DNA of 8,729 bases. Origin: a virus. Its lineage: Duplodnaviria; Heunggongvirae; Uroviricota; Caudoviricetes. Each line of letters begins with the position of its first letter. The first letter of the stretch is position 1. The translations under genes and the position numbers were made by a program. This document shows positions 252 to 8,729 of this stretch, in pieces. The DNA is taken from IMG/VR virus record IMGVR_UViG_2645727555_000021. One strand, given 5' to 3'. The notes beneath the pieces were generated by a model. That model was not told the origin of the DNA. It saw only the letters and a list, made by a program, of their open reading frames with translations, and made no database searches.

Positions 252-1949
252 TCACTTTTTTTCGTTAACCTTGCCTGTCAGCATGTCGATAGCACCTTCT
301 TTGGCACGAGTCAGACGCAGGCGGGTGAAGTAGTTTTCACCGTTGCGAGGATGTACTTCGTTGATGGCACTGCCCCAGAGAGTGGTACGGTTAACGAGAG
401 ACGGATTGGTTTCGTGCACGTAAGGGATTGCTGGGACTGCATCACCAGCAATCAGACCGGCTTTACCGATGCCTTCGCCACGCCCATAGAAGAAGATGTC
501 ATCCAGCCCGAAGTCATATCCCTGTGCCTGGAATTGCTCACAGACAGGTTGCGGCACTTCGTAAATACGAATCGTGCCAAACAGGGTGCCGATGTACTGT
601 ACATACGGCGACTGAACGTAACCTGGTGCGATCTGGAAGTGCTGTGGAGGCAGAGAGCGCAGGAAGTTCGCGGCGTCACCACCAGCAAAGCCGCCACGAA
701 TACCCGTTGTCAGGGTACGATTTGCCATTTCTTGAGACAGAGCGTTTACTACGTGACGCAGGAGGCCGACCCAGGACTCATAGTTTTGAGCTTCCGGCAG
801 AGCCACATCAAATTCACGACCATAAACGGTATGGAATACCAGGGTGCGCAGACGCATGATGTCGGTTTCATGGGAGATCCAGTTACGCATCGCGGAGAAC
901 TGAAGTGCCGCTAATTCAAGGCCGTGCTCACGGCTTAAATCGGATGCGGACATTACCGTGTGTTCGGAAGCAATTACGTACTGGGACGGACGAACTTCGT
1001 ACTTACGCATAGCCTGGTTGATCACCGGAATCAGGCTTGGATTGCGCTCGATGTTAATTTCGACCTGAACAGCAATTTCAGTACCTTCTGGCGGAGCCTG
1101 GGTAAATGTAATGTCAATGACACCAGTGTCATAGGCAACTTTGGCAGTCGCTGAGAAAGCATTACCTTTGCTGTCTTTAGCATTGAAATAAAGGTTGCCA
1201 TCGCCGTCGTCAACTTTGGACGGTTTGCGGTTGATCAGCAGTTTGTTATAACCAGCGCGAAGCGGGCAGGATTGTCCCTCAAAATTTTTGATGTCGAACT
1301 GGAAGGTTTTGGTGCTGCCATCCCCTTTAGTGGAAAGGGTATACAGGCGCTTCATTTGAGAATAAACACCAGCTGACTGCATATTCAGTTCGTCACCTTG
1401 TTTGAAGGTGCCGAATTTTGTGCCTGCTACGTTGACCAGTTCATAAATATTTGACTCGTCACGATCACAAGGAACAAAAGTACAGGCATCACTGGTAGCA
1501 GCGCCCAGAGAGGCAGGCAGAATTAGAGCAGCATATTGAGCAACTTTCATTACGCCGTCAGAGCTACGCATTGATTGCGCGACAGACTCAAACATTGCCT
1601 TACCCGTGCCTTCATGGGTATCACTGGCACATTCAGTCATCAGGCGTTCAAGAGCCATGTGTGCGTTCGCCAGGATGTCACTTGCCGGGTAATGACCATG
1701 TTGACGTTTATACTCATGCAGAGACATAGCCCACCCACCAGTGATCTGACGAGCGACCTCTGGATTTACGCCTTCAAACATAGGCACTTTCTGGATTGCT
1801 TTATCCAGGTTTTCCATCATTACTGCCTGGTCAGCAATCATGTTGCCTGCTGCATCGGTGGTCGGATCGACGGTCATAGCCATGACGCTTGCCGCCCGAT
1901 TCATAATCTCGCGCTCGCGATCACGAGCTGGCTGAATGTTTTTATTCAC
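252..1949 (-). CDS. Hypothetical 565-aa protein, function unknown (possibly a virion structural protein; speculative)
   Basis: Long uninterrupted ORF with a GTG start at 1949 (translation begins NKNIQPA), with AGGG about 9 nt upstream. No Walker A, no transmembrane segment, no recognisable catalytic motif by eye. The antisense ORFs 219..914 and 428..859 have low-complexity, Arg/His/Cys-rich translations and are treated as shadows. Confidence 0.75.
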   Translation of the reverse strand: MNKNIQPARDREREIMNRAASVMAMTVDPTTDAAGNMIADQAVMMENLDKAIQKVPMFEGVNPEVARQITGGWAMSLHEYKRQHGHYPASDILANAHMALERLMTECASDTHEGTGKAMFESVAQSMRSSDGVMKVAQYAALILPASLGAATSDACTFVPCDRDESNIYELVNVAGTKFGTFKQGDELNMQSAGVYSQMKRLYTLSTKGDGSTKTFQFDIKNFEGQSCPLRAGYNKLLINRKPSKVDDGDGNLYFNAKDSKGNAFSATAKVAYDTGVIDITFTQAPPEGTEIAVQVEINIERNPSLIPVINQAMRKYEVRPSQYVIASEHTVMSASDLSREHGLELAALQFSAMRNWISHETDIMRLRTLVFHTVYGREFDVALPEAQNYESWVGLLRHVVNALSQEMANRTLTTGIRGGFAGGDAANFLRSLPPQHFQIAPGYVQSPYVQYIGTLFGTIRIYEVPQPVCEQFQAQGYDFGLDDIFFYGRGEGIGKAGLIAGDAVPAIPYVHETNPSLVNRTTLWGSAINEVHPRNGENYFTRLRLTRAKEGAIDMLTGKVNEKK

Positions 1950-2516: not shown

Positions 2517-2975
2517 ATGAGTCACGTTAACCCATCAAAAACACAATATCGCTTAATGCTGGCGATCGCGTCAGCTATACCAACCAGCCTGAATCCCCCG
2601 GCAGGCTATCCCGCTGTTGTTGATGATTGTTTTCAGTATTACGGAGAAGACATCCTGAGCCAGTCCAAAGCGCTCAAGCAGTTATGTAAGGCAGGTATTC
2701 TTCACTGTATCGGAGATCCGGACGATTTTGTTGTTATGCTGGCGGATCGTGACTCTTTTCTACTGTCCTGGAAAGCCGGTGCGCGCGAAGCACGTTTGGG
2801 GAATGGTATTGGTTACATAGACTATAGTGATTGTCCGCTGGCATTTGCTGGTGGATATATGCATTGGCATGAGCGAAATAGAGGCCGTCAGCGTCAGTAT
2901 CGCTTGAGTGACTTTAACGTCTGTCACGGTTTCGAAGAAGCTGACAGCCAGGACATCTGGCTTCAGGAGCCTTGA
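2517..2975 (+). CDS. Hypothetical 152-aa protein, function unknown
   Basis: ATG at 2517 preceded by AAGGGA 5 nt upstream. Soluble, with no transmembrane segment and no recognised motif; Cys/His-containing (CHG, HWHE). Its 3' end overlaps the convergent lipoprotein gene by 13 bp. Confidence 0.65.
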   Translation: MSHVNPSKTQYRLMLAIASAIPTSLNPPAGYPAVVDDCFQYYGEDILSQSKALKQLCKAGILHCIGDPDDFVVMLADRDSFLLSWKAGAREARLGNGIGYIDYSDCPLAFAGGYMHWHERNRGRQRQYRLSDFNVCHGFEEADSQDIWLQEP

Positions 2976-3295
2976 TCCCCCTTCCCTTCCCAAATCTCCC
3001 TGTTTCTTTGGTTATTCAGTGCGTTTCGTTGGTTGCATTCGTCGATCGTGCTGAATAACTGTTCAGCGTATGTCGGATACTTGTTTAACAGCACTGGCGT
3101 GTCCTCTGGCACTAAACAAGGGGAGTAATCAATCAGATTTGCCTGCGGCTTGCTGGTGGCTTCTACGGTAATTTTCACTGGCACGCTGGTTGATGGCTTT
3201 TGCCCGTTCCCGCTGCATCCTGATAACGTCATCAGGCACACGCACATCGTTAATCCCAGCACGGCGTAACGCATTTTCAAGGCGAGTGATTTCAT
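2963..3295 (-). CDS. Outer-membrane lipoprotein, o-spanin (Rz1)-like
   Basis: N-terminus MKSLALKMRYAVLGLTMCVCLMTLSGC is a lipoprotein signal peptide with lipobox LSGC; the mature part is Pro/Ser/Thr-rich with extra Cys. GAGAGGAAAG lies immediately upstream of the ATG at 3295. The gene starts inside the 3' end of the upstream Rz-like gene in a different frame (overlap 3129-3295), matching the overlapped spanin architecture known for P2 lysB/lysC. Confidence 0.5.
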   Translation of the reverse strand: MKSLALKMRYAVLGLTMCVCLMTLSGCSGNGQKPSTSVPVKITVEATSKPQANLIDYSPCLVPEDTPVLLNKYPTYAEQLFSTIDECNQRNALNNQRNREIWEGKGDQGS

Positions 3296-3587
3296 TCTGG
3301 CTTTCCTCTCGTTGTTTGATTAGGTTGGCATTCAGTTCTGCTGTTTTGCGCTGGTACTCCTTTTCCAGTGCTTTAATTCTTTCGTTTTCGGTCAGCATGG
3401 CTGAGCGAGCGTTCTCACTTAACTGTAATGCGGTAGAAAGCGTGTTGTTCGTGCTTTCCAGTTGTGATTTTGAGTCTTCAAGCGATCGGACATACCTGAT
3501 GTGTTCGATAACTGCCGTCGTTGTTCGGTAAATTCCAGAAATGGCTAAAAGCGCAATTACAATCAAAATTATCTTTTTCAAAACCAT
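3129..3587 (-). CDS. Bitopic inner-membrane coiled-coil protein, i-spanin (Rz)-like
   Basis: The ORF is open to 3602, but the ATG at 3585-3587 (MVLKKIILIVIALLAISG...) is directly preceded by GGAGAGG, whereas the ATG at 3602 has no SD. One N-terminal transmembrane helix, then a long charged coiled-coil-like region (EKEYQRKTAELNANLIKQREESQNEITRLENALRRAG). Its C-terminal region overlaps the lipoprotein gene. Confidence 0.55.
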   Translation of the reverse strand: MVLKKIILIVIALLAISGIYRTTTAVIEHIRYVRSLEDSKSQLESTNNTLSTALQLSENARSAMLTENERIKALEKEYQRKTAELNANLIKQREESQNEITRLENALRRAGINDVRVPDDVIRMQRERAKAINQRASENYRRSHQQAAGKSD

Positions 3588-3658
3588 CCTCTCCAGGTTC
3601 ATTTTTTGGTGTTAAACATGTACCAATTTACATCCTTTTGTGTGCCTAAGTGGTGCTT

Positions 3659-4465
3659 CTATGATTCCTTTTTGGTGTTCTTTTGGAGCGCATCGATAAC
3701 GCCTTGTGGCATGATTAAACTGATTGCCGGACTCATTACTGCATCATCCAGTAGAGAACCAGTTAACGTGATGGCGACAGCGTTCTCTAAACCTTTGGTT
3801 GCCTGAGTGGTTGACGTTTTAATGCGACCTGTAAGGGCTACGACACCCTCACTTGCTGAGTTAATTTCGGAGAGTAAAACTTCGGCGGCTGTCACTGCTT
3901 CCCGTAAAGCATCAATTTCATCCTGAGTAATGACTGGAGCCTGAGCGCCCCCAGCACCACCCTGTCCACCATTGCTTTCACCACCACCAGCACTTCCGGC
4001 AGCTTCAATTTTTGCGTTAATGGCGTTCATGGCGGTTTTCAGAGCATCAAGTTTTAGCGCCGTCAATGCGTCCGTTAGAGATTGCGGAATGGAAACATTC
4101 CCCATTCCCTCAACAAGGGCGAAAGCAGGTATGGGGGTCAGCTCGTTACCTTTTGCGTAGCATTCCCAGCCAATCTTCATCTGTAACAACTCTGATGGCT
4201 TGGTGTATGGGGAAAGAGAATCAGCCAGTAATGAAGACGCTTTGCTGGCCTCATTGAGCTGTTCAGAAAAGCCAAGCAATTGAGTAGTCCAGGCCGAAAC
4301 AGAATCAGGATAGGTTTTATCGGCGTGAACTATTCCCTGTATGGCGCTGGCGAGCGATGAGGCTTTTACAGAAGCTGCCCGGCTTATGGTTATAGATTCT
4401 GGTGTAGAGATACCGGCATCTGACAGAATTTTGAAGGCTTTAACTTCACCTATTGAATCAAGCAT
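3659..4465 (-). CDS. Hypothetical 268-aa Ala/Ser/Gly-rich soluble protein, translationally coupled to the PAAR-like gene
   Basis: The ORF extends upstream to 4564, but its in-frame ATG at 4463-4465 overlaps the PAAR stop (TAATG on the coding strand); the first 33 codons of the longer ORF are shadow of the PAAR gene. Contains a low-complexity linker AAGSAGGGESNGGQGGAGGAQAP between helical Ala-rich halves. No transmembrane segment and no catalytic motif seen. Confidence 0.65.
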   Translation of the reverse strand: MLDSIGEVKAFKILSDAGISTPESITISRAASVKASSLASAIQGIVHADKTYPDSVSAWTTQLLGFSEQLNEASKASSLLADSLSPYTKPSELLQMKIGWECYAKGNELTPIPAFALVEGMGNVSIPQSLTDALTALKLDALKTAMNAINAKIEAAGSAGGGESNGGQGGAGGAQAPVITQDEIDALREAVTAAEVLLSEINSASEGVVALTGRIKTSTTQATKGLENAVAITLTGSLLDDAVMSPAISLIMPQGVIDALQKNTKKES

Positions 4466-4749
4466 TATGCAACCTGAAAAATATCCTCGCCGTTGGCGAT
4501 AACAGAACCACAAGAAAGCGGATCGCCTACACAGACAACTCCCTTTCCACCTATCGAAAACCATACTCGCGTCGATACAGCTGCCCCTGGATGTGCACTG
4601 TTACCGTCAGTGTGACTGGGAAACATGGCACCATCTACAACAACTGGCTTACCGTTAACGGTGAACCAGGGAACGGTTTCTGCTACCAGTCGCGGCGGAA
4701 ATCCTCCGTGACCAGAACAAAGGGTGTCGCTGGTGGCTATTGCGCTCAT
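4465..4749 (-). CDS. PAAR-repeat-like protein (94 aa)
   Basis: ATG at 4747-4749 with AGGAGG 6 nt upstream. Translation shows three repeats of the PAAR type: LCSGHGG, WFTVNGKPVVVDGA and VWFSIGGKGVVCVGD. Size and repeat pattern match PAAR spike-tip proteins of T6SS and T4 gp5.4; assignment is by eye, not alignment. Confidence 0.6.
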   Translation of the reverse strand: MSAIATSDTLCSGHGGFPPRLVAETVPWFTVNGKPVVVDGAMFPSHTDGNSAHPGAAVSTRVWFSIGGKGVVCVGDPLSCGSVIANGEDIFQVA

Positions 4750-4834
4750 TCTTCACCTCCTGGTTATCCTCCTATTGTCATCACTTTGTTATTTCGTCAT
4801 TCAAACGGAGAGTTAAATTTCGGAATATTTTTGT

Positions 4835-4990
4835 ATTCTCAATTCATTCTCAAATAAATCTCACTATCAGACCATCATTCAGTGAGTGATTAAGATATTC
4901 TCAAAATAAACTCAACAAGCGCTCTTTTTTATCTCGTTTGGTGTGGATTTTTGGGTGCTTCTCTTTTAAAATTACATTTTAATTCTCAAA
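4835..4990. repeat. parC-like centromere/operator iterons upstream of parM
   Basis: Four exact copies of ATTCTCAA at 4835-4842, 4846-4853, 4897-4904 and 4982-4989. Degenerate copies sit 11 bp after the second and third (AAATCTCA at 4857, AAACTCAA at 4908), giving two phased runs of three with 11-bp spacing, as in R1 parC. The array lies in the divergent region between the PAAR-operon start and parM. Confidence 0.45.
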
Positions 4991-5015
4991 TGTGTCTCAG
5001 AAGTGGAGCAAGAAG

Positions 5016-5972
5016 ATGCGCATTTTTATCGATGATGGTTCAACCAATATCAAAATGCTGTGGGAGCACGACGGGGAAACTCGCACTCACATCAGCCCTA
5101 ACAGCTTTAAGCGCGGATGGTCAGCAACATTTGGTGCGGGCAAGCCGTTTAACTATGTCATTGACGACGAAAAGTATTCATACGACTTGATATCGCCAGA
5201 TGTTCTGCCGACGAATAATGTGGAATGGCAATACAGCCCGCTTAACGTCCTGGCTGTTCACCATGCCCTGCTGACAAGTGGCATTGAGCCGCAGGAAGTA
5301 GAAATTGTGGTCACGCTGCCTCTGGCGGAGTTTTACGACGACGACGCGCAATACAATCTCGATAACATCGAGCGCAAGAAAGCCAGTCTTATGCGCCCCG
5401 TCACGCTGAATAAAGGCAATGTGTTCACGATTAAGAAAGTTACGGTACGACCGGAGTCTATTCCGGCAGGAATTGGCCTGTGCGACAATCTGAACCCTGC
5501 CCATTCTGTTCTTATCGTCGATTTGGGTGGAACTACCCTTGATGTTTCAATGGTCGCCGGGCAAATGACGGCAGTTTCCCGTGTTTTTGGCGATTCGAAT
5601 CTTGGTGTATCACTGGTCACCAGGGAAGTAAGGCAAGCACTTGCAAGGGCCAATACCGAAACGTCAAATTACAATGTTGATCAGCTCATTATTAACCGCC
5701 ACGATGAAGATTATCTGAACGACAATATCAATGACCCATCAGCGATTGGTGATGTGAAAAAGGCCATTGCCGCAAGCATTGACCGTCTGCGTACCCGCGT
5801 TCTTGATGTGATTGGCGACTTTAAAGGATATACGCATGTCATGGTGATCGGTGGTGGCGCACCGCTGGTGGCAGATGCAATTCGCGAGCAAGTTAATATT
5901 CGTGATGACCGTTTCTTCGTGGCGGATGACCCGCAACTTGCTCTTGTTCATGGCCTGAAAGCAATCGGTTAA
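5016..5972 (+). CDS. parM: Type II partition actin-like ATPase ParM (StbA)
   Basis: The N-terminus MRIFIDDGSTNIKMLWEHDGETRTHISPNSFKRGW closely follows the R1 ParM N-terminus (MLVFIDDGSTNIK...HISPNSFKREW) as I recall it, and the motif NVLAVHHALLTSG is also shared. GGAG lies 7 nt before the ATG at 5016; the tracked ORF start at 4992 is a GTG extension without an SD. 318 aa. Confidence 0.9.
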   Translation: MRIFIDDGSTNIKMLWEHDGETRTHISPNSFKRGWSATFGAGKPFNYVIDDEKYSYDLISPDVLPTNNVEWQYSPLNVLAVHHALLTSGIEPQEVEIVVTLPLAEFYDDDAQYNLDNIERKKASLMRPVTLNKGNVFTIKKVTVRPESIPAGIGLCDNLNPAHSVLIVDLGGTTLDVSMVAGQMTAVSRVFGDSNLGVSLVTREVRQALARANTETSNYNVDQLIINRHDEDYLNDNINDPSAIGDVKKAIAASIDRLRTRVLDVIGDFKGYTHVMVIGGGAPLVADAIREQVNIRDDRFFVADDPQLALVHGLKAIG

Positions 5973-5979
5973 CGAGGTA

Positions 5980-6324
5980 ATGTCCATGTCTCAGGAACGT
6001 AAGAAAGTGATGATTTATCTTCGCCCAGAGGCTTATGCCAATGAAAAGGCGGCGAGCGAGAAGATAAAAAAACATAGCGATATGGCAAGAACCGCATTGT
6101 TGGCAGGGCTTGCGCTGGGAGAAGTCGATAGCAGGCTTCCAGGATTACTGGCTTCCCTGCTGACCGAAGACAATAACCCGGAGCTGATCCGAAAAATGCT
6201 GGCATCCTTCCTGGAACTACCAGCTGCGGTTGAGGAGCGCCCTGCCTCCATTGAGCCAGTGAAGGAGCAAGTTGTTGCCAAAAGCGCGTCGGCGCGCAAT
6301 CTGGCTGACTCTCTACCTGATTGA
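5980..6324 (+). CDS. parR: Type II partition adaptor ParR (StbB)-like DNA-binding protein
   Basis: It lies 8 nt after the parM stop, is of ParR size, and the segment ARTALLAGLALGE resembles RAALTAGLALY of R1 ParR from memory. The start may be the ATG at 5986 rather than 5980, because GAGG at 5974-5977 is better spaced for it. Confidence 0.75.
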   Translation: MSMSQERKKVMIYLRPEAYANEKAASEKIKKHSDMARTALLAGLALGEVDSRLPGLLASLLTEDNNPELIRKMLASFLELPAAVEERPASIEPVKEQVVAKSASARNLADSLPD

Positions 6325-6342
6325 CAGAAAATGTGCTGGTTT

Positions 6343-6367
6343 AAGGCTGCAAATTGCAGCCTTTTTT
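6343..6367 (+). terminator. Rho-independent terminator of the parMR operon
   Basis: Perfect 9-bp stem AAGGCTGCA (6343-6351) / TGCAGCCTT (6355-6363) with a 3-nt loop, running into a T-run that ends at 6367; it lies 19 nt after the parR stop. Confidence 0.7.
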
Positions 6368-6395
6368 ATGCCTTAATGGTGTCTAATTGGTGTTA

Positions 6396-6578
6396 ATCTG
6401 GAACCAGTTAGGTGCTGTTATGATGCAATTTTGTATCTGGTTCCAATTTGGGGCTGATTTCGTGTTAAATAGGATGCAATATAAGGTGTATTTGGTCTGA
6501 TTGATGTTATACTTTGCCAAACATTCATGACTCCATTATAGAGCCTGTCCCGCATCAAGAAGGCTCTTATCTGGAACC
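6396..6578. repeat. Repeated ATCTGG(A/T)(A/T)CC motifs upstream of parA; candidate partition site or operator
   Basis: ATCTGGAACC at 6396-6405 and 6569-6578, and ATCTGGTTCC at 6435-6444. Also ATGCAAT at 6423-6429 and 6474-6480, and AATGGTGT / AATTGGTGT at 6375-6390. The last copy sits in the leader between the putative promoter and the parA RBS. Confidence 0.4.
6505..6513 (+). promoter_or_regulatory. Putative extended -10 promoter for the parA operon
   Basis: TGtTATACT at 6505-6513 matches the extended -10 form TGnTATAAT. No good -35 is present. It lies about 100 nt upstream of the parA ATG. Prediction by eye only. Confidence 0.3.
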
Positions 6579-6611
6579 GTTTTGATACCAAAATCACACC
6601 GAGGAACGGAT

Positions 6612-7253
6612 ATGATTATATTGGTAGTCAGCCAAAAAGGTGGCTGTGGAAAATCAACCACAAGCGTAAACATCTGTGCGGAGCTTGCCCGCGCAAATAA
6701 GGATGTAGTGTTACTAGATGCAGACAAGCAAGGAACAGCTGCCCGCTGGGCAGCTGACCGTAACACGGCAGAGGTTTCTCCTGTTATTCATTGTGTCCAG
6801 AAGTTTGGTAATATTCGAGAAACACTTCTCGATCTGGATAAGCGTTATGAATTTGTTGTTGTTGATACAGCCGGGCGCGATAGCAAAGAGATGCGTACAG
6901 GCATAACCGCTGCAGATATTGTGTTGGTCCCATTCAGACCATCTCAACCAGATTTAGACACGCTGGCACACTTTGTTGAAGTGTTTGAAGAGGCTTTGGA
7001 CCTGATGCCTAATCCTAGCATTAAGGCGTTCGCAGTCTTAACAATGGCCCCATCCAATCCGGTTGTGAATGAAACCAATGAGGCCAAAGAGTACCTGGCT
7101 GAATATCCGCAACTGAAGTTGCTGAAAACCATCATTCGTGATCGTAAGGTTTACCGTGATTGCATGGCTGAAGGGAAGGGCGTTGTTGAGATGGACAACG
7201 GGAAAGCTAAAGGTGAAATCCAGATGTTGGTTAAGGAGTTATTAAGTGATTAA
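6612..7253 (+). CDS. parA: Type Ib partition ATPase, small ParA/ParF-like (213 aa)
   Basis: The N-terminus MIILVVSQKGGCGKSTT is the deviant Walker A (KGGxGKT/S) of ParA/MinD ATPases. The C-terminus (RKVYRDCMAEGKGVVEMDNGKAKGEIQMLVKELL) resembles ParF of TP228 from memory. GAGGAA lies 5 nt before the ATG at 6612; the tracked TTG start at 6582 is an unsupported extension. Confidence 0.85.
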   Translation: MIILVVSQKGGCGKSTTSVNICAELARANKDVVLLDADKQGTAARWAADRNTAEVSPVIHCVQKFGNIRETLLDLDKRYEFVVVDTAGRDSKEMRTGITAADIVLVPFRPSQPDLDTLAHFVEVFEEALDLMPNPSIKAFAVLTMAPSNPVVNETNEAKEYLAEYPQLKLLKTIIRDRKVYRDCMAEGKGVVEMDNGKAKGEIQMLVKELLSD

Positions 7254-7533
7254 GCCTCGTAAATCGGTAAAAGCCCCCGAAGTAAAAGACCCCGATCTTG
7301 AACGCCGAATTGAGGATTTTGCAAGTAAGGCTGATTTGGTGCCGGGTGAGCAACCAGAAGACAACAAAGTGCTCGATAAGGACGCTCCACGTGATTTTAA
7401 ATCTATTCGTGTTGGTTTCAATGAATACGAGTACCAGGTACTTGATGCGTTAAGTAAAAAGCATAATCGCAGCAAATTGAATATGATCCGCCATGCTATC
7501 CTCATGTTAGCGGAGTCTGAAGAAGCAAAATAA
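7246..7533 (+). CDS. ParG-like ribbon-helix-helix centromere-binding partner (95 aa)
   Basis: GTG start at 7246 with AAGGAG at 7233-7238, overlapping the parA stop by 8 nt. The C-terminus SIRVGFNEYEYQVLDALSKKHNRSKLNMIRHAILMLAE fits an RHH fold, and the N-terminus is charged and likely disordered, as in ParG. The only in-frame ATG is at codon 80. Confidence 0.6.
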   Translation: MIKPRKSVKAPEVKDPDLERRIEDFASKADLVPGEQPEDNKVLDKDAPRDFKSIRVGFNEYEYQVLDALSKKHNRSKLNMIRHAILMLAESEEAK

Positions 7534-7640: not shown

Positions 7641-7801
7641 ATTTTTCATTAATTTACTTATGCGCAAAAGTGGGCTTCATGAAAAAGCTCATTATTGAAA
7701 TAACGATAGAAAGCAATTTCTAATCAACTAGTGGTTGTCAGCCTATTCGGCTTATAAGATCATACGCTGTTATACGTTGTTTACGCTTTGAGGAATCCAC
7801 A

Positions 7802-8729
7802 ATGAGTGAGGCAGAAGCCCGCCCGACTAACTTTATTCGTCAGATCATCGATGAAGATCTGGCCAGTGGTAAGCACACCACAGTACATACCCGTTTCCCG
7901 CCGGAACCGAATGGCTATCTGCATATTGGTCATGCGAAATCTATCTGCCTGAACTTCGGGATCGCCCAGGACTATAAAGGCCAGTGCAACCTGCGTTTCG
8001 ACGACACTAACCCGGTAAAAGAAGATATCGAGTACGTCGAGTCGATTAAAAACGACGTTGAATGGTTAGGTTTTCACTGGTCTGGCAACATCCGTTACTC
8101 CTCCGATTATTTTGACAAACTCCATGCCTATGCTGTTGAACTGATCAACAAAGGACTGGCGTATGTTGACGAACTGACGCCGGAACAGATCCGCGAATAC
8201 CGCGGCACCCTGACGCAGCCGGGTAAAAACAGCCCGTACCGCGACCGCAGCGTTGAAGAGAACCTGGCGCTGTTCGAAAAAATGCGTGCCGGTGGTTTTG
8301 AAGAAGGTAAAGCCTGCCTGCGTGCGAAAATCGACATGGCTTCGCCGTTTATCGTGATGCGCGACCCGGTGCTGTACCGTATTAAGTTTGCTGAACACCA
8401 CCAGACTGGCAACAAGTGGTGCATCTACCCGATGTACGACTTCACCCACTGCATCAGCGATGCGCTGGAAGGTATTACGCACTCTCTGTGTACGCTTGAG
8501 TTCCAGGACAACCGTCGTCTGTATGACTGGGTACTGGACAACATCACCATTCCTGTTCATCCGCGCCAGTACGAATTCTCGCGCCTGAATCTGGAATACA
8601 CCGTGATGTCCAAGCGTAAGCTGAACCAGCTGGTAACCGACAAGCACGTTGAAGGCTGGGATGACCCGCGTATGCCGACCATTTCCGGTCTGCGTCGTCG
8701 TGGTTACACTGCTGCTTCTATTCGTGAGT
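7802..8729 (+). CDS. glnS: Glutaminyl-tRNA synthetase, N-terminal 309 codons (3' partial, continues beyond the window)
   Basis: The translation [53 protein letters not shown]... carries the class I HIGH motif (HIGH) and VMSKR (KMSK motif) and matches E. coli GlnRS from memory, with a few substitutions. GAGG lies about 8 nt before the ATG. The ORF track missed it because it runs off the window; the antisense ORFs 8066..8647 and 8128..8424 are shadows. Confidence 0.96.

Follow-up and report, generated by a model that had tools for sequence, protein, structure and literature searches.

UpfC and UpfB orthologues of a D6-type phage-plasmid and their probable place at the tail tip

The 8,729-nt stretch of DNA analysed here (the window) encodes a 94-aa PAAR-like protein and, directly downstream, a 268-aa protein. 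The two are the D6-lineage orthologues of P1 UpfC and UpfB and very likely belong to the membrane-piercing end of a contractile tail. The pair is an ordinary, already described phage tail-tip module and not an orphan part of a secretion system. That it corresponds to the upfC-upfB module of the P1 family with UpfC as the spike tip is almost certain; that UpfB is a virion protein bound to this tip is probable. The following features of the window are referred to below:

252..1949, minus strand: predicted major capsid protein gene of the P1 gene 23 type (phrog_1014, 7e-220; annotated in D6 as 'major capsid protein, similar to P1 gene 23')
2963..3295, minus strand: Rz1-like gene for an outer-membrane lipoprotein spanin, counterpart of P1 mlp (phrog_456, 1e-5; phrog_17138; weak match to Pfam O_Spanin_T7)
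3129..3602, minus strand: Rz-like gene for an inner-membrane spanin, counterpart of P1 ppfA (phrog_214, 1e-15; phrog_17671; P1 counterpart annotated as Rz)
3659..4465, minus strand: upfB orthologue, encoding a 268-aa acidic all-helical protein (phrog_1559, homology to P1 UpfB, AF2 model; D6 note 'similar to P1 gene upfB')
3938..3997, minus strand: codons of the Gly-rich linker of UpfB (residues ~157-176, AGSAGGGESNGGQGGAGGAQ; pLDDT below 50 at residues 160-173)
4463..4467, minus strand: TAATG junction of the upfC stop and the upfB start codon with one shared base, read from the sequence
4465..4749, minus strand: upfC orthologue, encoding a 94-aa single-domain PAAR-repeat protein (Pfam, phrog_281, PDB 9vyi_A; D6 note 'similar to P1 gene upfC')
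4756..4760, minus strand: Shine-Dalgarno sequence GGAGG, read from the sequence, with a 6-nt spacer to the upfC ATG
4750..4991, no strand: 242-nt divergent intergenic region between upfC and parM with a motif copy and repeats

Phage context of the window

Phage D6, a P1-like phage-plasmid, aligns with 99% of the window at 99.0% identity. The window shares 99.9% identity with plasmid CP058021 and 99% identity with about 100 E. coli and Salmonella plasmids of ~92 kb; 445 plasmid records match it. By homology, the window is a slice of a myovirus phage-plasmid of the D6/P1 family, and the predicted capsid gene marks it as part of a tailed-phage genome. Neither this gene nor the Rz/Rz1 spanin pair directly downstream of upfB had been drawn on as phage context in the initial annotation. 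ORF list, Pfam and phrog profile searches confirmed that no VgrG, Hcp, sheath or baseplate gene is present inside the window. This apparent absence of a baseplate context is due to the small size of the window (8.7 kb). The sheath gene of D6 (gene 22) ends ~250 nt left of it, and the D6 spike gene 5 is located 3.3 kb beyond its right end and 7.3 kb from upfC, followed by genes 6, 24 and 7. Within 20 kb, the D6 record contains sheath, tube, baseplate, spike and fibre genes on both sides. The claim of a PAAR gene with 'no T6SS or baseplate context' can thus not be upheld, nor can the novelty that it suggested: tail genes just outside the window had been named beforehand as the mark of an ordinary tail-tip module, and such genes flank it in D6.

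D6 gene 5 (L001, 31951-32604) matches the P1 Gp5 of PDB 9vzk with 2.9e-55. It is the gene, outside the window, that encodes the trimeric β-helix spike lacking an apex of its own, and it is with its product that the PAAR tip physically associates. In the D6/P1 family, structural genes are scattered among plasmid-maintenance and accessory genes.

UpfC and its relatives

The PAAR assignment of the 94-aa protein has been borne out at three levels. Pfam PAAR_motif (PF05488) passes marginally with 27.2 bits at a gathering cut-off of 27.0 bits, phrog_281 ('PAAR motif') matches clearly (8.4e-29), and the solved monomeric spike tip of P1, UpfC (PDB 9vyi and 9vzk), is found as 9vyi_A with E=1.4e-35. D6-type and P1 UpfC are 57% identical over all 94 residues without gaps, which suggests that the D6-type protein adopts the conical three-hairpin β fold of the solved chain. 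By these matches, it is assigned as the UpfC orthologue and monomeric tip of the central spike of the tail. Both proteins share the conserved His and Cys residues as well as the first position of an upfC-upfB-Rz-Rz1 cluster, whereas 43% of the residues differ. P1 UpfC itself had been matched to T4 gp5.4 by HHpred (PMC9024508).

Among other solved structures, 9f4b_BA is found with E=4e-7 and T4 gp5.4 (5iv5/4ku0) with E=1.4e-5 in an alignment over residues 2-87. Relatives of the gp5.4 type are present in 388 phage records. T4 gp5.4 (PDB 4ku0, 5iv5) appears to belong to the same fold family as UpfC and has the same size; its motifs GH..PP, HT, H.G and DP.SCG align with UpfC. In T4, three His and one Cys residue constitute the metal site of gp5.4 (PMC12407873). 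The corresponding residues of UpfC, H14, H46, H53 and C80, align with the GH, HT, H.G and SCG positions and are invariant among 24 distinct orthologues. They are putative ligands of a metal site that would tie the tips of the hairpins together. Both T4 gp5.4 and P1 UpfC are dispensable for plaque formation. Unlike in D6, the T4 tip gene is located beside the spike gene 5 and lacks a partner resembling UpfB, and T4 gp5 carries a lysozyme domain that is lacking in the P1-type gp5.

PAAR proteins of type VI secretion systems (T6SS) that sit on VgrG (VCA0105, c1882, PDB 4jiv) are likewise PAAR-repeat cones binding a trimeric β-helix spike. However, they serve a secretion system, whereas UpfC is a virion protein, and neither VgrG, Hcp and TssBC nor an effector extension or an effector-immunity pair is found here. 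Their chains resemble the 94-aa protein only weakly (4jiv_D, E=0.017; 8gra_J, E=0.5).

UpfB and its linkage to upfC

The mechanical ORF list contained a 301-aa version of upfB starting at 4564. The start used here, which yields 268 aa, is conserved across all relatives and annotated in phage D6. phrog_1559 matches residues 1-265 with 2.1e-110, and BLASTP aligned P1 UpfB collinearly over the full length (27% identity over 263 residues, E=7e-24). By this homology, the 268-aa protein is assigned as a full-length orthologue of P1 UpfB. The suggestion that the partner might be something new likewise goes back to the size of the window. Its description as a low-complexity protein applies only to a Gly-rich linker of ~20 residues; the remainder is predicted to form well-ordered helices, with 14.6% Ala, 11.2% Ser, 10.4% Leu and 8.6% Gly in the protein as a whole. 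The AF2 model of the single chain (mean pLDDT 82.6, pTM 0.74) comprises ten helices and no strands, and the linker separates an N-terminal helical part from a long C-terminal helix. The most strongly conserved stretch of UpfB is at residues 87-118 (PYTxPSELLQMKIGWECYAKGN). UpfB has a pI of 4.65, and sequence analysis revealed neither a transmembrane segment nor a signal peptide or lipobox.

P1 UpfB shares phrog_1559, the position behind upfC and the same arrangement of helical N-terminal part, low-complexity linker and long C-terminal helix. The relatives of UpfB carry such a linker at the same position; it is Gly/Ser/Pro-rich in P1, in contrast to the Gly-rich one here, and Pro-rich in the most distant subgroup. 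Even among near-identical plasmids, its length differs.

The UpfB family is small and uniform: a set of 1.84 billion proteins contains 73 clusters of it at 50% identity, and all ten of the most distant full-length members tested match phrog_1559. In 50 family members, no Pfam domain, including toxin or enzyme domains, was detected. The family has a narrow distribution and is not represented by a Pfam model. A search across viral contigs with the single distant member P0104 found nothing. No solved relatives were found by sequence; the matches were artefacts of the Gly linker that led to designed proteins and scFv linkers. A Foldseek search of the model against the PDB yielded nothing below E=0.03, with BAR-domain and chemoreceptor helical bundles at TM below 0.3. 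In BFVD, DUF7217 proteins from other large myoviruses resembled the model weakly (E=2e-3, TM 0.45-0.53). This may perhaps merely reflect similarity between helical bundles: DUF7217 was found in 0 of 50 UpfB family members in the Pfam search and in none of ten ORFs that surround the baseplate genes in phage CBA120, and no mention of this lead was found in the literature.

The upfC stop codon TAA (4467-4465) shares one base with the upfB start codon ATG (4465-4463), an overlap that the initial annotation had described correctly to the base. The TAATG suggests translational coupling. In all 39 loci from the D6 and P1 lineages (D6, P1, JK004 and 36 IMG/VR contigs, all of ~80-93 kb, i.e. of P1 size), upfC is located immediately 5' of upfB. 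The 1-nt overlap, as TAATG or TGATG, is kept in 36 of them, even where the partner is only 28% identical. In the others, the genes are separated by 8-9 nt with an AGGAG (P1 and JK004; 8 nt and its own AGGAG in P1) or by a 1-nt gap (one further locus). In a distant relative, L040, an apparently frameshifted PAAR gene is found 3 kb from an upfB-like gene, which directly precedes capsid and sheath genes and is not followed by a spanin gene. Across the same loci, UpfB evolves much faster than UpfC (27-59% vs. 53-89% identity).

Downstream, the Rz-like gene is co-directional with upfB and starts 56 nt past it; no terminator was predicted in between. The Rz1-like gene overlaps the 3' part of Rz in a different frame; according to its lipobox, LSGC, the lipidated Cys is residue 27 in the long ORF. 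The order upfC-upfB-Rz-Rz1 (4749..2963 in the window) is common to D6, P1 and JK004. As originally proposed, upfC is the first gene of this co-directional cluster, behind the 242-nt divergent intergenic region. The upstream neighbours differ, with parM in D6 vs. uhr-hrdC-dmt in P1.

The upfC promoter must be located within the intergenic region. A late-operon motif, AAATCACA(A/C)A followed by TAnnnT, is found upstream of the D6 genes R, pmgB, 23, 7 and mat. Upstream of upfC, a degenerate copy with a poor -10 element, TTAATCACTCACTG, is present at 4891-4868 (minus strand). Furthermore, four ATTCTCAA repeats are located at 4832-4999, and there is one σ70-like site at 4853-4824 (minus strand), a count no higher than expected by chance from shuffled sequence.

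Probable place of UpfB at the tail tip

In P1, cryo-EM revealed UpfC as a monomer on the gp5 trimer and an additional tripod density at the tip (PMC12810830). In 2026, this 'tripod' was assigned to UpfB by an AlphaFold3 fit to medium-resolution density only, without an atomic model, and no mass spectrometry was reported for the assignment (PMC12810830). Three trimers of UpfB on the tip are given in one paper vs. three copies in another. In an independent preprint on the P1 baseplate, the tip was modelled with UpfC only and UpfB is not mentioned. The D6 UpfB, only 27% identical to the P1 protein, is known from its sequence and a predicted model.

These data are consistent with the following mechanism. 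UpfC would be a monomeric PAAR-repeat cone, held by the metal site of His14, His46, His53 and Cys80, that caps the blunt end of the trimeric gp5 β-helix spike encoded elsewhere in the same genome. UpfB, predicted to be acidic, soluble and all-helical with a flexible Gly-rich hinge, would most likely assemble on the UpfC cone, along its faces, and so form the tripod that is seen distally on the P1 spike. upfC and upfB would be the translationally coupled first two cistrons of a unit that runs into Rz/Rz1 and is presumably expressed in lytic growth. Presumably, D6 resembles P1 in these respects, UpfB accounts for the tripod density and the module aids penetration of the envelope. Among the options that the initial annotation had offered for the partner, a virion protein comes close to this published view, whereas an effector or cargo protein does not agree with the lack of a toxin domain and of immunity and T6SS genes.

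Could UpfB act before the virion is complete? As a cytoplasmic assembly factor or chaperone, it might keep the small, metal-dependent PAAR cone in its folded state or load it onto gp5 and then be released, and the tripod would be something else. In an LC-MS/MS study of purified P1, UpfB is missing from the main text including Table 1 with its 23 virion proteins, even though peptides would be expected from a 27-kDa protein present in 3 to 9 copies. However, gp5, UpfC, PmgA and gp26, all present in the solved structure, were missed in the same study, so that the absence of UpfB is weak evidence. Strict adjacency to upfC with translational coupling would be as fitting for a dedicated chaperone as for a structural partner, and an acidic, soluble, helical protein is compatible with such a role; the tripod assignment, moreover, is a model fit. 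Against this stand the three-fold density of the right size and shape on the P1 tip, into which the predicted UpfB oligomer is reported to fit, and the faster evolution of UpfB, a pattern more usual among exposed parts of virions than among housekeeping chaperones. In addition, neither T4 gp5.4 nor the single-domain PAAR proteins of T6SS need a chaperone of this kind (PMC12407873). A chaperone function is therefore considered unlikely.

Far less probable is a role of UpfB in lysis or envelope disruption late in infection together with the downstream spanins, with its link to the PAAR protein being a matter of operon layout only. The shared gene order in D6, P1 and JK004 and the short upfB-Rz gap with no predicted terminator would agree with it. 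However, UpfB lacks signal peptide, transmembrane segment and lipobox and can therefore not reach the periplasm where spanins act, and in L040 the upfB-like gene stands before capsid and sheath genes with no spanin gene after it. Knock-down of upfB in P1 caused no lysis or plaque defect. Spanin pairs are known to act as two-component systems that do without a third partner.

PAAR proteins of T6SS cap VgrG spikes and carry effectors (PMC12407873), but a plasmid-borne orphan PAAR protein with a downstream cargo or effector serving a chromosomal T6SS is extremely improbable and was rejected: the element amounts to a complete genome of a myovirus that encodes a gp5 spike itself; neither the ORFs of the window nor 48 kb of D6 include core genes of a T6SS (VgrG, Hcp, TssB/C and others); the nearest solved relatives of the 94-aa protein are phage spike tips, ahead of the weakly similar T6SS chains by 30 orders of magnitude in E-value; and the UpfB family, devoid of toxin and enzyme domains in 50 members and here not followed by an immunity gene, is restricted to P1-size phage contigs.

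UpfB is thus probably a virion protein bound to the spike tip. A more far-reaching proposal, for which the odds are low, is that it represents a new class of fast-evolving PAAR spike-tip appendage that makes the first contact with the outer membrane and is not a passive decoration. Its divergence, three to four times faster than that of the tip, and its lineage-specific flexible hinge would fit such an appendage, doubtful as it is. If this were true, UpfB could adapt penetration to the host's LPS core or to the composition of its outer membrane; by analogy, T4 gp5.4 matters only on truncated LPS. Alternatively, UpfB could be the first protein to reach the periplasm, either by being shed or by injection. 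Given the weak fold resemblance to DUF7217 proteins, tip appendages of this kind might also occur outside P1-like phages. In P1, deletions or knock-downs of upfB and upfC gave normal plaques, i.e. both genes are dispensable for plaque formation and no phenotype links either of them to infection.

As the module is known, its identification in the window adds little. It does illustrate that a PAAR gene is not necessarily an orphan when no tail genes are visible in a window of 8.7 kb, since P1-family phage-plasmids scatter their structural genes. A modest interest remains in the role of UpfB, which evolves fast and whose placement at the tip comes from a model fit. Phage-plasmids of the D6 and P1 type are very common in E. 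coli and Salmonella and spread resistance genes; therefore, whether the tip appendage affects host range is a question of some practical value.

Genomic setting of the upfC-upfB pair

The window is matched by 445 plasmid records, 104 of which cover at least 80% of it. The latter are mostly plasmids of ~92 kb from E. coli, Shigella and Salmonella, the best one being 99.9% identical. Identity is 99.0% to the full genome of Escherichia phage D6, a myovirus of the P1 type whose lysogenic form is a plasmid. In the D6 record, orf57 is labelled 'similar to P1 gene upfC' and orf56 'similar to P1 gene upfB'. These are the two genes of interest here.

Features of the window (positions in the window; strand where assigned)
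252-1949: gene-23 major capsid gene
3602-2963, minus: Rz/Rz1 spanin pair
2963-3295, minus: outer-membrane spanin ORF, 110 aa, with signal peptide and lipobox LSGC (Cys27)
ending at 3659, minus: upfB orthologue, 268-aa ORF whose ATG shares one base with the upfC stop codon TAA
4749..4465, minus: upfC orthologue, 94-aa ORF with GGAGG 6 nt ahead of its start codon
4992-5972: type II ParM
5980-6324: StbB-like protein
6582-7253: short ParA-type ATPase of a second partition system
7246-7533: 95-aa ORF downstream of the ParA-type ATPase
about 7800-8729 and past the window end, plus: glnS (glutaminyl-tRNA synthetase), an annotation shared by D6 and all related plasmids

The coordinates of the pair and its coupling by a TAATG stop/start junction, read from the sequence at 4467-4463 on the minus strand, were confirmed. 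A mechanical ORF list contained a longer, 301-aa version of the second ORF starting inside upfC. The 268-aa start is the form conserved in every relative and annotated in D6.

The initial annotation had also stressed the lack of a T6SS or baseplate context. Within the window, genes for VgrG, Hcp, sheath or baseplate are indeed missing, but the flanks in D6 carry sheath, tube, baseplate and spike genes close by. The sheath gene (gene 22) is located a few hundred bases outside the left end, with tube, baseplate, tape-measure and fibre genes farther out on that side. To the right, past the partition genes, glnS, dmt and hrdC, spike gene 5 is found with genes 6, 24 and 7, at 3.3 kb from the window end. 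The protein encoded by D6 gene 5 hits the Gp5 chain of P1 in PDB 9vzk (E=2.9e-55). The window seems free of tail genes because P1-family genomes scatter their structural genes, as seen in the D6 record. Tail genes just outside the window are what the initial annotation itself had named as the mark of an ordinary phage tail-tip module. The upfC-upfB pair is such a module and already known: The D6 record annotates it, and structural work has described it in P1.

The spike tip UpfC and its proposed partner UpfB

The proposed PAAR nature of the 94-aa UpfC orthologue holds. It passes the Pfam PAAR_motif model narrowly (27.2 bits, cut-off 27.0) and phrog_281 clearly (8e-29). Among all PDB sequences, its best match is 9vyi_A, 'UpfC' of P1 (E=1.4e-35), followed by the T4-type tip proteins 9f4b, 5iv5 and 4ku0 (E=4e-7 to 3e-5), while T6SS PAAR chains only appear at E=0.017 and above. 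It is 57% identical to P1 UpfC over all 94 residues without a gap, and tblastn found gp5.4-type relatives in 388 phage records. The alignment with T4 gp5.4 places H14, H46, H53 and C80 at its conserved GH, HT, H.G and SCG positions, and all four residues are unchanged across 24 distinct UpfC orthologues. In T4 gp5.4, a metal bound by three histidines and one cysteine holds the hairpins together (PMC12407873). Two cryo-EM studies, one of them PMC12810830, placed a single copy of P1 UpfC at the tip of the gp5 trimer, a location foreseen earlier from HHpred (PMC9024508). Deletion of P1 upfC left plaquing unaffected (PMC9024508). It is essentially certain that UpfC is the spike tip.

The UpfB orthologue is an end-to-end match to phrog_1559 (2e-110). 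It aligns over its full length with P1 UpfB (27% identity, E=7e-24). A word-indexed search yielded 39 clusters with identities down to 37%, all unnamed, and a profile search of 1.84 billion representatives just 73 clusters, nearly all of 240-265 aa. All ten of the most distant full-length members tested match phrog_1559. A Pfam match is absent in the window protein and in all 50 family members examined. Judged by these searches, the family is small and uniform and without a curated model. The 268-aa protein had been described as low-complexity. This applies only to a Gly-rich linker of ~20 residues; the remainder is predicted to form ordered helices. The AlphaFold2 model (24-sequence alignment; pLDDT 82.6, pTM 0.74) comprises ten helices, with residues 160-173 disordered and a 58-residue helix (residues 181-238) after the linker. 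Linker composition varies: It is rich in Gly in the window, in Gly and Ser in P1, and in Pro in the most distant subgroup. The most conserved stretch comprises residues 87-118 (PYTxPSELLQMKIGWECYAKGN...). Among viral folds, the model scores best against DUF7217 proteins encoded by Pectobacterium phage Wc4, Serratia phage 3M, Salmonella phage 38 and Escherichia phage FEC14 (Foldseek probability 1.0, TM 0.36-0.53, 12-14% identity).

Linkage was investigated at 39 loci from D6, P1, Cronobacter phage JK004 and 36 IMG/VR contigs, nearly all of 30-93 kb. In all 39, a UpfC homologue is encoded immediately upstream of a UpfB homologue, and 36 display the 1-nt stop/start overlap, even where UpfB identity is just 28%. 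P1 and JK004, by contrast with the window type, have an 8-9 nt spacer with AGGAG. The order upfC-upfB-Rz-Rz1 is common to D6, P1 and JK004. UpfB diverges much faster than UpfC (59% vs 89% and 27% vs 56% identity at example loci), and both identities are correlated across loci (r=0.95). In a distant P1-like contig of 87 kb (L040), an upfB-like gene with a Pro-rich linker (10001-10765) is located directly ahead of capsid and sheath genes. Its PAAR gene (6662-6938) lies ~3 kb upstream, with a DNA methylase gene among those between. A C-rich run breaks this PAAR gene into two frames, through either a frameshift or a sequencing error.

The best-supported view, to which we give roughly two chances in three, is that UpfB is a tip-bound virion protein. 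Two observations agree with it: Coupling to upfC is conserved, and UpfB diverges fast, as exposed virion parts typically do. In P1, a 'tripod' anchored to the spike tip was assigned to UpfB in 2026 by cryo-EM (PMC12810830). UpfB itself was not resolved; an AlphaFold3 trimer was fitted to medium-resolution density, and mass spectrometry is not mentioned in that paper. A later paper modelled three UpfB copies on UpfC. The main rival is a chaperone function. UpfB is absent from the main text of PMC9024508 including its Table 1, which comprises 23 P1 virion proteins detected by LC-MS/MS; gp5, UpfC, PmgA and gp26 were likewise missed. Plaquing was normal after both deletion and CRISPRi knock-down of P1 upfB and upfC. 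A role in lysis is unlikely despite the neighbouring spanin genes, because the acidic UpfB (pI 4.65), for which neither a transmembrane segment nor a signal peptide is predicted, has no way out of the cytoplasm.

Other genes in the window

The D6 record annotates only a 73-aa outer-membrane spanin (about 2963-3184) without the lipobox. Similarly, the annotated Rz1 start in P1 record MH422554 (position 7277) is downstream of an LSGC lipobox. Both annotated starts are probably wrong. Two partition systems are located side by side (4992-7533). For a temperate phage, the phage-plasmid-borne glnS is unusual cargo.

The first 86 nt of the window match neither D6 nor D6-like plasmids; all those matches begin at 87. 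Positions 1-111 match ~1,270 plasmid records, often several times each, and in one record adjoin an IS91-like ISEc37-family transposase gene. Taken together, these matches suggest that in the source of the window an IS-associated segment replaces most of D6 orf49 ('structural protein with Ig domain'; start codon expected at about 104). At orf49, the prophage is possibly altered or defective.

Upstream region and expression of upfC

A 242-nt region separates upfC from the divergent parM and must contain the upfC promoter. In a sigma-70 scan, sites were no more numerous than expected by chance. The motif AAATCACA(A/C)A, with TAnnnT 8-10 nt after it, lies ahead of five late operons of D6 (R, pmgB, gene 23, gene 7 and mat).

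Minus strand, 5923, 13299, 21932, 35201 and 39908 in a 48-kb D6 stretch and 2018 in the window (before the capsid gene): AAATCACA(A/C)A motif

This is a candidate D6 late-promoter element, dissimilar to the inverted repeat of 9 bp known from the late promoters of P1. Upstream of upfC, only a degenerate copy was found at 4891. Late expression of upfC-upfB is thus no more than plausible. The same region carries a direct repeat in four copies that share the core ATTCTCAA (units of 21 nt at 4832, 4843, 4894 and 4979, spanning 4832-4999). They could plausibly serve as a parC-type centromere for the ParM/StbB system starting at 4992.

Upstream of P1 upfC, ATATTTATTAGAGCAAT is present at 5613-5629 of the P1 record; no equivalent of this site was seen in the D6-type window. 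It is nearly the reverse complement of ATTGCTCTAATAAATTT, the operator consensus of the P1 C1 repressor. If this match is true, C1 would control the upfC region of P1.
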